DNA of 64,000 nt, taken from assembly GCA_016201505.1 (NCBI GenBank), contig JACQCQ010000002.1:12750-76749 (forward strand), given 5' to 3'. Source of the DNA: Candidatus Sungiibacteriota bacterium (GTDB lineage: Bacteria > Patescibacteriota > Minisyncoccia > Sungbacterales > JACQCQ01). Under the pieces are notes generated by a model. That model was not told the origin of the DNA, made no database searches, and saw nothing but the letters and a program-made list of their open reading frames with translations. This document shows positions 4,162 to 31,475 of this stretch, in pieces (within the stretch, counting starts at the first letter, position 1; each line of letters opens with the position of its first letter). Position numbers and translations under genes: made by a program.

Positions 4162-4205
4162 GCGAATGTAATTTAGTGGCAGAATTCTTGCTTCCCAAGC
4201 CCCGT
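4162..4205 (+). repeat. Degenerate partial copy of the tRNA-Gly 5' half (D-arm and anticodon arm)
   Basis: gtaatttAGTGGCAGaattcTTGCTTCCCAAGC compared with tRNA-Gly gtagtatAGTGGCAGtacatTAGCTTCCCAAGC. The anticodon stem is disrupted and there is no T-arm. Confidence 0.5.
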
Positions 4206-4229
4206 ACCGTAATCTAAAACGCGCTTTGC

Positions 4230-4300
4230 GCGAGAGTAGTATAGTGGCAGTACATTAGCTTCCCAAGCTAATAGCAGGGGTTCGATTCCCCTTTCTCGCA
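4230..4300 (+). tRNA. tRNA-Gly (anticodon CCC)
   Basis: Manual fold: acceptor GCGAGAG/TTCTCGC with a G.U pair, D-arm, anticodon stem TTAGC/GCTAA with loop TTCCCAA (U33, anticodon CCC, A37), T-arm AGGGG-TTCGATT-CCCCT, discriminator A. No encoded CCA. Confidence 0.7.
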
Positions 4301-4318
4301 TTTAATTTTGTAGATTTT

Positions 4319-4414
4319 GGTCACGGGGCAAGCCAGGAGCCTGGGTTCGATTCCCGCCTTCGCATTGGTGTGAGGGCAAGCCATAGGCGCGGTTTCGATT
4401 ACCGCTGGCCGCAC
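4319..4414 (+). repeat. Two tandem tRNA 3'-half-like units (variable region + T-arm + acceptor 3' strand, each ending CGCA)
   Basis: Unit A is ...GGGCAAGCCAGGAGCCTGGGTTCGATTCCCGCCTTCGCA. Unit B is ...GGGCAAGCCATAGGCGCGGTTTCGATTACCGCTGGCCGCA and has a perfect T-arm GCGGT-TTCGATT-ACCGC. No matching 5' halves were found. Confidence 0.5.
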
Positions 4415-7924: not shown

Positions 7925-8178
7925 GGATATAATGTTTTCGTCATTGTAAGCTGGAGTAATCGGAGCCTCACTTCTCGTCTCTGGCTTCGAGATCCTAAAA
8001 ATGAATGCTACATTCATTTTGTCATCCTCGCGCCGGAGTAACTCAGCCTGCCCCGTTACCGCCACCTTAGCTCCCTCCTTAGCTCAAATTTATTTTGAGC
8101 TTCAGAAGGGCGAGATTACCCCAAACGAGGGCAGGCTTGCACTTCCGCAGCTTCGATGAGAGTCGAAGCAGAGAGGTT

Positions 8179-8251
8179 GCCACCTTAGCTCAGCTGGTAG
8201 AGCAGCACTTTCGTAAAGTGAAGGTCCCGAGTTCGAATCTCGGAGGTGGCT
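8179..8251 (+). tRNA. tRNA-Thr (anticodon CGT)
   Basis: Manual fold: acceptor GCCACCT/AGGTGGC, D-arm GCTC-AGCTGGTA-GAGC, anticodon loop TTCGTAA (U33, CGT, A37), T-arm CCGAG-TTCGAAT-CTCGG, discriminator T. Confidence 0.75.
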
Positions 8252-8268
8252 CTGATAGAATAAGATGA

Positions 8269-8337
8269 ATGGCTGACATTCCCGCACGTCTTAAAAAAAC
8301 AAAAACTAATATCCGCGTGCTCGCGGAACGTCTTTGA
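8269..8337 (+). other. Relic upstream copy of the RF2 leader ORF0 (22 codons MADIPARLKKTKTNIRVLAERL ending CTT TGA C)
   Basis: ATG at 8269 is in frame through CTT(8332-8334) TGA(8335-8337). It is homologous in length and sequence to the functional ORF0 at 8636 (MNDIQQRLNIVRDKVRVLAERL) and shares its last 28 nt exactly. Confidence 0.5.
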
Positions 8338-8339
8338 CC

Positions 8340-8630
8340 CCGCCCCTTGAGATTTATTATGTATGATATGTATGTGCTCGGTATGAGTAATGGACAATTT
8401 TATGCCGGCTTTGCATCAGACTTAAAAAAGCGAGTTGCAGAACATAAACATGGTAAAGTTTCTACAACAAAAAAATATCTCCCAGTTTCGCTGATATTTA
8501 TGAATGCTATCTTTCCGAGCGAGATGCAAAACATAGAGAATATATGCTAAAGAAATTTGGCAGTACGTATTCTCACCTCAAGAAACGTATTAAAGATAGC
8601 ATTCAGAAATCTCAAGGGCGGGGTTTGACC
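8340..8630 (+). mobile_element. GIY-YIG mini-element copy 2 with terminal inverted repeats and flanking TTTGACC repeats
   Basis: Left end TTTGACC|CCGCCCCTTGAG at 8333-8351, right end CTCAAGGGCGGGG|TTTGACC at 8611-8630. The inverted repeat has an 8-bp perfect core CCCTTGAG/CTCAAGGG extended to about 13 bp. It encloses the GIY-YIG ORF. The whole unit lies between two copies of the 28-bp prfB recoding segment (8312-8339 and 8679-8706). Confidence 0.6.
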
Positions 8631-8633
8631 TAA
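8359..8633 (+). pseudogene. GIY-YIG nuclease-family gene, copy 2, interrupted by a +1 frameshift in a T-run near 8497-8500
   Basis: N-terminal part MYDMYVLGMSNGQFYAGFASDLKKRVAEHKHGK...KKYLPVSLI matches the GIY-YIG pattern. The conserved C-terminal part (YECYLSERDAKHREYMLKKFGSTYSHLKKRIKDSIQKSQG) continues in the -1 frame to TAA at 8631-8633, consistent with a single T inserted in ATATTTATG. Confidence 0.6.
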
Positions 8634-8635
8634 AT

Positions 8636-9749
8636 ATGAATGATATACAACAAAGGTTGAATATTGTACGAGATAAGGTCCGCGTGCTCGCGGAACGTCT
8701 TTGACCTGCGCCAACTTCGCGAGGACATTTTAAAATACGAGTCTGAATTATCAGCGTCGCATATTTGGCAGAATGATCCCGAACGGGCGAAAGAGTTGGG
8801 ATCGCAAATAGCCAATAGCAAAAAAGAAATCGCGCGCTGGGAACATATCACGGGCGAGGCCGCGACGCTTGAGGAACTCTGGGCCATCGCCGGAGCCAGT
8901 CCCGATTCCGGGTTTCTCCGCGAATTTGATGAGCGGCTCTTTATGCTTGAGCAGAGTCTCCGGGCAGTCGAAATTGAATATTTATTTAGCGGAAAATATG
9001 ATAAAGGCTCGGCGCTGGTTTCGATTTATTCCGGCGCCGGAGGCAAAGACGCCGAAGATTGGGCGGCGATGCTGGCGCGCATGTACGAGCGCTACGCTGA
9101 ACGCCTGGGCTGGAAGGTGATCCGCGTCCACGAACATAACGGCGAGTACCACGGCCCGTCGGGCTGGGGGATTAAAAACGTAACACTCGATATAAAAGGC
9201 GACTTTGCTTATGGCTATTTAAAACATGAGCGCGGCGTGCATCGGCTGGTGCGCATCTCGCCGTTTTCATCGCAGTCACTGCGGCACACCTCATTTGCGC
9301 TGGTTGAAGCCCTGCCCGAGATGATTGAGCCGGAAGAAATCGAAATCAAACCCGAAGAAATTACCTTTGATTTTTTCCGCGCGTCAGGTCCGGGCGGCCA
9401 AAATGTAAATAAACGTGAGACGGCGGTGCGCGTGATTCATAATCCGACCGGCATACAGGCAACGGCTCAAAGCGAACGGACGCAGGAACGAAATCGTGAG
9501 ACGGCCATGCAGCACTTGCGGGCCAAGTTGTACCAAAAAAAGTTAGCCGAGATCGAGGCCGAACGGCGCGGCATCCGCGGCGAGCAGGTATCGGTTGAAT
9601 GGGGTTCGCAAATTCGCTCGTATGTCCTGCATCCATACCGGCTCGTCAAAGACCATCGCACCAATTACGAAACCTCGGATGTTGAGGGGGTACTCGACGG
9701 TGATCTAGACGCGCTGGTTGAGGCTTCGATTCGAAGAGTAATGCCGTAG
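8636..9749 (+). CDS. prfB: Peptide chain release factor 2, expressed through a programmed +1 ribosomal frameshift
   Basis: ORF0 runs ATG 8636..CTT 8701 then TGA 8702-8704. The +1 frame (GAC at 8703) continues DLRQLREDIL...SPF...GGQ... to 9749. SPF and GGQ motifs identify RF2. Confidence 0.9.
8699..8705 (+). promoter_or_regulatory. RF2 programmed +1 frameshift (recoding) site CTT TGA C
   Basis: Classic autoregulatory shifty site: CTT in frame 0 is followed by the in-frame TGA, and TTT GAC is read in the +1 frame. Confidence 0.8.
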
Positions 9750-12238: not shown

Positions 12239-12309
12239 TGCGGGATCGGCTAACGGCAGGCCACGAGACTCTGAATCTCGGTATCTTGGTTCGAATCCAA
12301 GTCCCGCAG
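12239..12309 (+). tRNA. tRNA-Gln (anticodon CTG)
   Basis: Manual fold: acceptor TGCGGGA/TCCCGCA, D-arm GGCT-AACGGCA-GGCC, anticodon stem CGAGA/TCTCG with loop CTCTGAA (U33, CTG, A37), T-arm CTTGG-TTCGAAT-CCAAG, discriminator G. Confidence 0.75.
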
Positions 12310-12712
12310 CCCTTCGACAAGCTCAGGGCCTTTGCCATAATAGGCTCATGAGTTGGAATGTTTACATTCTTCTTTGCGATCAGAAAACTTTTTATGTTGG
12401 TCTAACAGATAATATTGAAAGACGAGTGAACCAGCATAATCGGAAAGAGTCATTTTTCACTAAAAAGTTTTCTGATGTAAGGCTGGTGTATCAAGAAGAA
12501 TATAGAAACAGAGCCACGGCTGAAAAAAGAGAACTGCAGCTCAAGAAGTGGAGTATCGCAAAGAAGAAAGCTCTCATTATTGGAGATAAGGAATTGCTAA
12601 AGAAATTAAGCAAAAGCCGTGAGGTTGACGATATGCTGGGGTAGTAAAGATAATGGTGAGCAGTTCGACAAGCTCACTGTTGAACGTGTCGAATCCATCC
12701 AAGTCCCGCAGC
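12291..12712 (+). mobile_element. GIY-YIG mini-element copy 3 inserted at the 3' end of tRNA-Gln, bounded by direct repeats of the tRNA 3' end
   Basis: tRNA 3' segment TCGAATCCAAGTCCCGCAGC (12291-12310) recurs as TCGAATCCATCCAAGTCCCGCAGC (12689-12712) after the GIY-YIG gene. Sub-terminal TTCGACAAGCTCA is present near both ends (12313-12325 and 12664-12676). Confidence 0.55.
12348..12644 (+). CDS. Small GIY-YIG nuclease-family protein, copy 3 (intact)
   Basis: MSWNVYILLCDQKTFYVGLTDNIERRVNQHN...RELQLKKWSIAKKKALI matches the GIY-YIG pattern and the C-terminal KxW region of this family. Confidence 0.8.
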   Translation: MSWNVYILLCDQKTFYVGLTDNIERRVNQHNRKESFFTKKFSDVRLVYQEEYRNRATAEKRELQLKKWSIAKKKALIIGDKELLKKLSKSREVDDMLG

Positions 12713-12897
12713 TATCCTTCATTAAAGCTACGGAATAGCAGGCCATCTTTCGCCAAGGTCCACTACGCCTCCAGAGCTGCAAGCAACGGAGCGTTACAGA
12801 ATGGCATGCCCCCAGTTGAGGAAATTTGGAGTCAGGCTTTAGGGGCTAAAGCCTGAATGCGGTTGCTATTTAGCCCTGAATGCGATAAAAACAAGTC

Positions 12898-30701: not shown

Positions 30702-31475
30702 GTTATGTCCCTTATTGCCGACCTTTTTCTTCCTGCTTTATCTAACTAATAGCGGGTAAGAATCGTCTCATCTATTTTTTGGTTTGATCAGCGGCGCAGG
30801 CATCAAATTTGACGAAAGATATTATTTAGTTTTTAGCACAATTTCGGCTCAAAAGGCGTTGACTTTGGTGTCATACCGGCATACTCTGATATTGGCCCGT
30901 AGGGTTCTTTTTTTACCTCGACGGCTTGGGCTTGGCTAATCTTGGATGAAAGTAGCGGCTAGGCTTATCCCCGTCAATTGGTTATCCACACGAGAGAGCT
31001 TGAGCCTGGAAGAGTCGAGCCATATAATAGGAACATCGCATATGGCCTGAAAGTTTGGCGAAATAAACGAACCGAATTTTTGGTGTCGTTTGTGCGTGTA
31101 AGAAATCAGAGCATGTTCCAGGGATAGTTAAAAAAATCAGGACCGAAAAGTTCAGCGGCTTAAAATTCACTAAGCAACTGAACTTTCCGGTACTGGCAAT
31201 CTCGGAGAGAATTGCGGTTGACGCAAGGAACTTCGGGAGGAGGCGTACGGAAAGAGTGGTTCGACAAGCTCACTATAAACAGTGCGGCATCGAATCAATC
31301 TTGATCAGCTTGAGATTGAGTCATCATACTCGTCCCGAGTGCAGTCGAGGGATTGATCATTCACAACTGAATGATTACGGTCGAAATATTCTTTGCCAGA
31401 AGAATGTAAATTCTTTTTGCAATTGGAGTAAGTATTTTAGTCTAGATTATTCTCAGATGCTCATCTGGTCGGCCT

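Follow-up and report, generated by a model that had tools for sequence, protein, structure and literature searches.

The Seg proteins of T-even phages are free-standing GIY-YIG homing endonucleases, known for 'intronless homing', and the bypass element of phage T4 gene 60 is linked to a mobA endonuclease cassette. Genomic islands and prophages integrate in tRNA or tmRNA genes, carrying a replacement gene end. In REP/REPIN-RAYT systems and IS200/IS605 elements one small gene has structure-forming ends, and the targets of IS200/IS605 are TTAC or TTGAT. The programmed-frameshift site of prfB, the essential gene for release factor 2 (RF2), is among the most conserved short bacterial sequences. Here we describe a 286-bp mobile element with a stand-alone GIY-YIG nuclease gene that lies in this site in a Candidatus Sungiibacteriota genome. 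We analysed a stretch of 64,000 nucleotides (contig JACQCQ010000002.1, positions 12,750 to 76,749), called the window throughout. A preliminary description of the window had reported a repeat-bounded GIY-YIG element inserted at the RF2 recoding site, and this anatomy was confirmed. We consider it probable that a member of a family of such elements inserted at the TTTGA of an older RF2 leader, ORF0-A, and that RF2 is now expressed from a locally duplicated leader, ORF0-B.

An element in the RF2 shift site

The window derives from a Candidatus Sungbacteria metagenome-assembled genome (MAG), in which tRNA-Thr is followed by the relic leader ORF0-A, the element, the functional leader ORF0-B and prfB (Table 1). 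The gene carries the hallmark of programmed +1 frameshifting, a short open reading frame (ORF0) that closes with CUU UGA, after which the RF2 body continues in the +1 frame. Read from the +1 frame past 8699-8705, RF2 is full-length (PCRF E 1e-43, RF-1 E 2e-36), and the NCBI gene call (P0018, 361 aa) shows 100% identity with an annotated RF2 of a Candidatus Sungbacteria MAG. The gene remains functional thanks to a second complete leader, equipped with a frameshift site of its own, that directly follows the element. This bears out the earlier proposal that a spare leader preserves prfB: ORF0-B starts 7 nt past the right-hand target duplication, runs for 22 codons to CTT TGA C and is followed by the full RF2. 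ORF0-A occupies the ancestral leader position, matching the site of the single leader in a related locus (L095), and its leader type is the sole, functional one in another (L210). The element severs it from the RF2 body at its own shift site.

The second 22-codon ORF0 reported after tRNA-Thr does share an exact 28-nt match with the end of the functional leader, for which 0 chance matches are expected. Allowing 94% identity lengthens the match to 33 nt, and its copies are spaced 367 nt apart. TTTGACC abuts the element on either side (8333-8339 and 8624-8630) and had been read as a 7-bp target duplication. The inverted repeats as first detected (8339-8355 and 8607-8623) were 17 nt long with 88% complementarity; their presence held, and their extent did not, since comparison across the family gave arms of ~19 bp with C8338 as first base and G8623 as last. 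The target duplication is therefore TTTGA, of 5 bp, in line with the 4-5 bp of the family. The left-hand CC is part of the repeat; the right-hand CC is host sequence.

After frame repair, the nuclease gene matched Pfam PF01541 (E 8e-10), and tblastn matched it in two frames. Relative to the intact homologues of loci L177 and L180, the gene has lost 1 nt near 8494-8500 (window, CTGATAT-TTATGAATGC; homologues, CTGCTATACTACGAATGC), and the public annotation holds only 63 aa (P0017). The window copy of the nuclease is decaying, its reading frame lost, as had been suspected. Within the gene we also observed a 23-nt internal inverted repeat (8492-8514 and 8592-8614, 91% complementary) through which the YYECYLS codons can pair with those of KDSIQ. 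This repeat is kept in the group of the window, L177 and L180 and absent from other family members.

Table 1. Features of the tRNA-Thr/prfB interval, in window coordinates
Feature	Position	Strand	Details
tRNA-Thr(CGT)	8179..8252	+	ARAGORN; Rfam 65 bits; upstream neighbour
ORF0-A, relic RF2 leader	8269..8337	+	MADIPARLKKTKTNIRVLAERL; 22 codons, ends CTT TGA
Direct repeat, copy 1	8312..8339	+	exact 28 nt: hairpin CCGCG-TGCT-CGCGG, then CTT TGA CC
Target duplication, left copy	8333..8337	+	TTTGA, 5 bp, inside shift site CTT-TGA
Mobile element	8338..8623	+	286 bp; left repeat CCCCGCCCCTTGAGATTT 8338-8355; right repeat AAATCTCAAGGGCGGGG 8607-8623
Stand-alone GIY-YIG nuclease gene, pseudogene here	8359..8633	+	halves 8359-~8499 and ~8499-8633, in different frames
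Target duplication, right copy	8624..8628	+	TTTGA, 5 bp; then CC and spacer TAAAT (8629-8635)
ORF0-B, functional RF2 leader	8636..8704	+	MNDIQQRLNIVRDKVRVLAERL; 22 codons; +1 shift site CTT TGA C 8699-8705
Direct repeat, copy 2	8679..8706	+	exact 28 nt
prfB main frame (RF2 body)	8703..9749	+	read after the +1 shift; PCRF and RF-1 domains

The layout of relic leader, element and new leader recurs in three other organisms (L177, L180/L181 and L114/L115). In L177, tRNA-Thr is followed by the leader MHDIPDRLAKIKDNIRVIADRL, an element with an intact gene, TTTGATG AAATC, the leader MTDIGKRFEDIRIRIRMLADRL and prfB. Its shift sites are spaced by 367 nt, equal to the window, and the last 37 nt of the two elements, through the duplicated TTTGA, are identical. 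L180/L181, 96% identical to L177 in both RF2 and nuclease, has three leader layers: first a remnant of 10 codons that belongs to the first type, then a complete second leader that abuts the element, and finally the functional leader. L114/L115 belongs to a distant, AT-rich genome whose old leader was interrupted twice, by a 59-nt miniature copy in the loop of its hairpin and by a nuclease-bearing element between CGTCTTT and TTTGAC, with the new leader beginning ten nucleotides later. In L115 (2096-2482) this new leader is fused in frame to RF2 (CTT AAT CTG), without frameshift, hairpin or TTGAC, so that with the frameshift the target motif of the element has gone too; the old, interrupted leader still has the shift site. 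On the nuclease tree L115 groups with L112, apart from the window, L177 and L180, which implies at least two arrivals at prfB. The element is co-oriented with prfB in 4/4 filled loci.

The empty site with a single ORF0, which the preliminary description had suggested looking for, is present in seven relatives whose RF2 is 70-79% identical, and neither a nuclease gene nor a repeat arm was found in any of them. The upstream flank was fully read in five (L092/093, L095/096, L179, L210 and L211/212), and in L095/096 the order is tRNA-Thr, 19 nt and one leader. A single leader is likewise present in L094 and L178, with upstream sequence that is complex in L094 and partial in L178 (147 nt of flank); L094 holds a weak possible remnant, and no second CTT-TGA leader ORF occurs in either. 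Tandem leaders lacking a GIY-YIG gene, which would have pointed to a plain duplication, were seen in none of the five fully read relatives, and a homologous second leader was found in 0/55 unrelated prfB loci with a recognisable leader. A genome scan with RF2, which served as a control, returned only relatives of at most 49% identity, with no nuclease and no second leader.

In a neighbour-joining tree of RF2, the empty locus L179 grouped with the filled loci L177 and L180 in 200/200 bootstraps, and the filled loci were never monophyletic, so that gain plus loss, or several gains, are needed. The shift region of L179 is a mosaic of the two leader types, such as might be expected of a revertant, though the mosaic rests on two informative sites. 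As regards spread by break repair with co-conversion of flanks, the leader region is a patchwork and the pattern of filled and empty loci is patchy.

A Shine-Dalgarno-like stimulator 3 nt before CUU is not present, the sequence reading GCGGAACGU CUU UGA, and the tRNA was the only match to known RNA families (Rfam). A 6-bp hairpin (UCCGCN-loop-NGCGGA; window 8312-8327 and 8679-8694) ends 5-6 nt before CUU UGA and is common to the RF2 leaders of L092, L094, L095, L177-L180, L210 and L211. Its innermost pair is the sole varying one and occurs as five pair types (CG, GC, AU, UA and GU). The +1 shift may be stimulated by this hairpin instead. No promoter-like site was found on the + strand between 7900 and 8800, so transcription of prfB probably reads through from the tRNA-Thr side; an element-made promoter for prfB was rejected on the same finding. 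A fusion of ORF0-A to the nuclease through frameshifting is likewise excluded, since, with respect to ORF0-A, the nuclease start is in frame 0 in the window and in another frame in L177.

Several observations concern the surrounding interval. Upstream of the real tRNA-Thr gene, the window has fragments of a tRNA-Thr 5' end (8061-8085), and in L094 (1765-2075) a tRNA-Thr of the window type precedes decayed remains of another tRNA-Thr type, the one present in L095. The interval between tRNA-Thr and prfB seems to be a replacement hot spot. The L094 insert, from the tRNA-Thr fragments to the leader, was considered as a decayed element and rejected, having no significant similarity and no repeat arm. 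Two junction patterns searched in viral contigs gave chance-level matches and a conserved phage gene, with no nuclease.

A family of paired-end GIY-YIG elements directed to TTGA

The element belongs to a family of ~290-bp units with 19-bp terminal inverted repeats and one stand-alone GIY-YIG gene of 86-91 aa. Related elements are 283-300 bp long, and all relatives of at least 53% identity whose DNA was read have the same ends (CCCCGCCCTTGAGA... and ...TCTCAAGGGCGGGG). Our sample comprised about 18 elements, whose flanks represent at least ten unrelated contexts. In the 16 elements compared, pairing between the 19-bp arms reaches 95%, and 12/20 pairs show compensatory changes; 0/500 shuffles reached the observed pairing, and sliding the partner by 1-3 columns gave 37-62%. 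The inner five or six arm positions vary among elements, yet always match their partner, with T-G pairs on the coding strand. The co-variation of the arms suggests that complementarity itself is under selection, as it would be in a stem of single-stranded DNA or RNA. The conserved C-terminus of the nuclease (SQGRG) is encoded by the right arm, and the TGA of the duplicated target normally serves as the stop codon. Miniature copies with the same ends and no ORF measure 121 nt (L081) and 59 nt (L115). The shared ends, the target duplications and the miniatures point to a family that is real and mobile.

A profile search returned 984 family proteins at E<1e-15, and the few with an organism name come mostly from Patescibacteria, Parcubacteria or Azambacteria. 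The closest relatives of the window nuclease (57-73% identity) are all metagenomic, with Candidatus Parcubacteria the sole named organism. The GIY-YIG catalytic residues Y5, Y15, G17, R25, H29 and E61 are invariant in 17 sequences. No separate DNA-binding domain was found in the proteins (86-101 aa), where GIY-YIG is the sole domain match, and the element holds no recognised transposase (DDE, HUH, serine or tyrosine recombinase). With a catalytic domain of ~90 aa and no DNA-binding domain, homing to a long site in the manner of an intron endonuclease, the analogy drawn at first, is unlikely. Searches of NCBIfam, PHROG and PADLOC gave no family beyond weak GIY-YIG matches, and the nearest solved relatives belong to UPF0213 (family profile versus 1zg2, E 1.8e-8; 1ywl, E 2.9e-6).

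Target duplications in the family are 4-5 bp long and lie at unrelated insertion sites in at least ten contexts. The flanking direct repeats are mostly TTGA, once TCAA (the opposite orientation), and also AATAA, AAAA, TTTGA and TTT. Of the QGRG-type family proteins, 39/52 stop exactly at the target, so that their stop codon is the TGA of TTGA. In seven of eight TTGA-flanked copies, the right flank has TTGACN followed 16-18 nt later by a -10 hexamer with 5/6 matching positions or more; the chance rate of such a -10 spacing in the same loci was 1.8%. Judged by these flanks, the usual family site is exactly the -35 box of a promoter, rebuilt by the duplication. The RF2 shift site CTT-TGA-C contains the same motif, TTGA(C). 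A TTTGA-type tail occurred in only one cluster among the 120 best, which makes prfB a minority site of the family. These targets mark the element as a TTGA-targeting generalist and not a prfB specialist, and the prfB-specific homing first proposed is not supported by the comparison.

Gene callers often start the nuclease at the TTG of the flanking TTGAC (N-termini MTPPL..., for example L081 2794-2916) or read through the target TGA as Trp, so that public entries of the family are frequently mis-extended or truncated. One family element with AATAA flanks lies between rpmE and an RF1/RF2-like gene (L108 1000-1500). This release-factor gene is best matched to the RF2 query, at 40% across residues 125-329. 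Its ORF apparently begins near residue 120 of a normal factor, and the N-terminal domain seems to be missing.

Origin of the spare leader and competing explanations

With the element and one TTTGA removed, the window locus becomes a tandem repeat whose 76-nt unit comprises 5 nt, ORF0 and the shift heptamer. Leaders A and B of L115 agree at 15/22 residues and are mutual closest relatives, and in L177 and L180 the functional (B) leader is 64-67% identical to the C-type leaders across the element, versus a background of 45-55%. The heptamer past the right repeat is in each case the genome's own functional heptamer, TTTGACC in the window and TTTGATG in L177 and L180. The 37-nt element end that the window and L177 have in common adjoins leaders that are only 50% identical. 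These comparisons favour a local duplication as the source of the spare leader rather than cargo of the element, an origin that the preliminary description had allowed for. The two window leaders have 96% identity over their 3' 27 nt, and other leader pairs reach 70-85%, bar two close orthologue pairs (0.93 and 1.00). The 28-33-nt identity of the leader ends is probably the product of recent gene conversion, and such repeats would permit clean loss of the element via recombination.

In the reading we prefer, the element, like others of its family, inserted at a TTGA(C)-type site with a 4-5-bp duplication, the RF2 recoding site supplying such a target. The state before insertion would be the tandem 76-nt units, the element landing in the upstream one. 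The spare leader could be a duplication produced when a break made by the nuclease in the shift site was repaired, or it could be a rare pre-existing duplication, the sole background in which an insertion survives. Mobility may be driven by the nuclease acting on the stem formed by the two ends of the element. More tentatively, and with somewhat more doubt than confidence, we suggest that the ~90-aa nuclease is the mobility enzyme of a new minimal class of ~290 bp, with paired-stem ends and a preference for TTGAC, a motif shared by promoter -35 boxes and the RF2 recoding site. Its attack on the RF2 site would trigger leader duplication, and cycles of insertion, turnover and loss would reshape the leader up to loss of the frameshift, as in L115.

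Several points weigh against this account. The 5' 42 nt of the window leaders are only 48% identical, which is the background level, so that in the window copy either the event is old or ORF0-B was imported. Window and L177, with their 367-nt spacing and sister nucleases, may represent a single event, leaving only two independent arrivals, and the trees are neighbour-joining trees of short proteins. No pair of empty and filled alleles was found for any promoter site, so the duplications there are read from the flanks. The 1-nt deletion in the nuclease could be a sequencing error of the MAG. A hydrolytic GIY-YIG nuclease is not known to perform strand transfer, and the nuclease could therefore be the cargo of another enzyme.

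If the downstream leader and its shift site were mobile together with the element, the nuclease would cut an empty prfB at the recoding site and repair would copy in the cassette, whose leader would take over from the resident one and leave it behind as ORF0-A. Such a leader-carrying homing cassette would fit a left leader that stands in the ancestral position and is of a type functional in L210, and 28-nt exact repeats that resemble a recombination core. It would also fit the interleaving of filled and empty alleles on the RF2 tree, the conservation between window and L177 of the spacer before the ATG (TAAAT, AAATC or TAAATT) and of the 367-nt spacing, and the patchwork of the leader region, with three layers in L180. 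We nevertheless regard it as unlikely. The protein lacks a DNA-binding domain, and the family sits mostly at promoters with flanking duplications of at most 4-5 bp. Conservation ends with the element (37 nt identical between window and L177, leaders at 50%), and the new leader of L115 is closest to its resident leader. Moreover, the shift site of filled genomes is identical to the presumed target and so not immune to cutting. A different possibility is that the ends are those of an unrecognised transposon with its transposase gene at another place, the GIY-YIG gene being a passenger as in a mobile insertion cassette. The repeats, however, hug the same gene in all ~18 elements (at least ten independent flanking contexts), and the right repeat encodes the conserved C-terminus, the target supplying the stop codon; this points to a long co-evolution of gene and ends. 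The passenger model, for which the element's lack of any known transposase fold and the ORF-less miniatures, whose ends can evidently be moved in trans, can be cited, is thus in our view rather improbable.

We give still less credence to a passive history, in which one ancient leader duplication, of unrelated cause, later received a TTGA-seeking element in its upstream, dispensable copy and was then inherited vertically with losses. Formally the pre-insertion state is a tandem leader, the nuclease divergence of window and L177 (72%) is similar to that of RF2 (75%), and orthologous promoter insertions do persist across diverged genomes. Yet element-free tandem leaders occur in 0/55 unrelated loci and 0/5 fully read relatives, and the L115 combination arose anew, with a different nuclease lineage, junction register and spacer. 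The duplication junction also falls exactly at the shift heptamer, the element's own target. An assembly or binning artefact with a false repeat could be suspected from the MAG source and the frameshifted nuclease gene; because independent assemblies from other samples (L177, L180/L181 and L114/L115) show the same layout with diverged sequences, it is effectively refuted. Insertion of a family member into ORF0-A, with RF2 expressed from a local duplicate, thus remains the explanation that we favour.

Neighbouring features, implications and described systems

Elsewhere in the window, a second, unrelated GIY-YIG gene (12348-12644; 98 aa, 33% identical to the first) lies directly past tRNA-Gln(CTG). 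Copies of an 18-nt direct repeat that includes TTCGACAAGCTCA stand on either side of the gene (12308-12325 and 12659-12676), and an exact 16-nt copy of the tRNA-Gln 3' end is found at 12697-12712. The region 12239-12713 may be another tiny nuclease element with a duplicated target sequence. A motif of ~40 nt (GTTCGACAAGCTCACT...GTG...TCGAATC) occurs in two copies, past the second GIY-YIG gene (12659-12700) and upstream of a large surface-protein gene (31256-31300). Around tRNA-Gly(CCC) (4230-4300), a copy of the 5' half lies upstream (4162-4200, 77% identity) and copies of the 3' half downstream (4329-4355 and 4377-4403); these fragments (4162-4405) look like scars of repeated integration and replacement.

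The locus suggests that a recoding site can serve as the landing site of a selfish element, with escape through duplication of the leader. It would provide a concrete route for leader turnover and possibly for loss of the frameshift, as in the in-frame fusion of L115. The elements are among the smallest protein-coding mobile units seen, and many 'GIY-YIG nuclease family protein' calls in Patescibacteria may be mobile elements. If the nuclease is the mobility enzyme, it would represent a new transposition chemistry and may be a compact tool for motif-directed insertion. In the literature, of which our coverage was incomplete, no paper connects GIY-YIG with prfB, and repeat-bounded GIY-YIG elements in Patescibacteria, or mobility of UPF0213 proteins, are undescribed.

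Set beside the nearest described systems, the element departs from each in a defining property: the DNA-binding domain, the integrase or the known transposase. As with the Seg nucleases, a selfish GIY-YIG gene lies by or in a conserved gene, in filled and empty alleles and with no splicing. Seg nucleases, however, have a C-terminal DNA-binding domain and lack terminal repeats, target duplication and miniatures, and the window element is the reverse on all of these counts. T4 gene 60 with mobA likewise ties a mobile nuclease gene to the recoding site of an essential gene that is kept functional; there the recoding signal arrives with the insert, whereas here the recoding site is the landing site and a duplicated leader keeps the function. 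Islands in tRNA and tmRNA genes are also flanked by direct repeats of the target-gene end and leave the gene intact. They use a tyrosine or serine integrase and a fixed core, in contrast to the window element, in whose 286 bp no integrase was found and whose repeat is variable rather than a fixed attachment core (28/28 in the window, 21/27 in L177). The REP/REPIN-RAYT and IS200/IS605 systems resemble the family in their small gene, structure-forming ends, short non-autonomous derivatives and short specific target; they employ HUH tyrosine transposases and make no target duplication, in contrast to the GIY-YIG protein and 4-5-bp duplication seen here. The UPF0213/COG2827 proteins (1zg2, 1ywl) belong to the same fold family of single domains of ~90-100 aa. 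They were deposited as hypothetical and, to our knowledge, have not been described as mobile. Unlike them, the family described here is framed by conserved repeats at many different sites.

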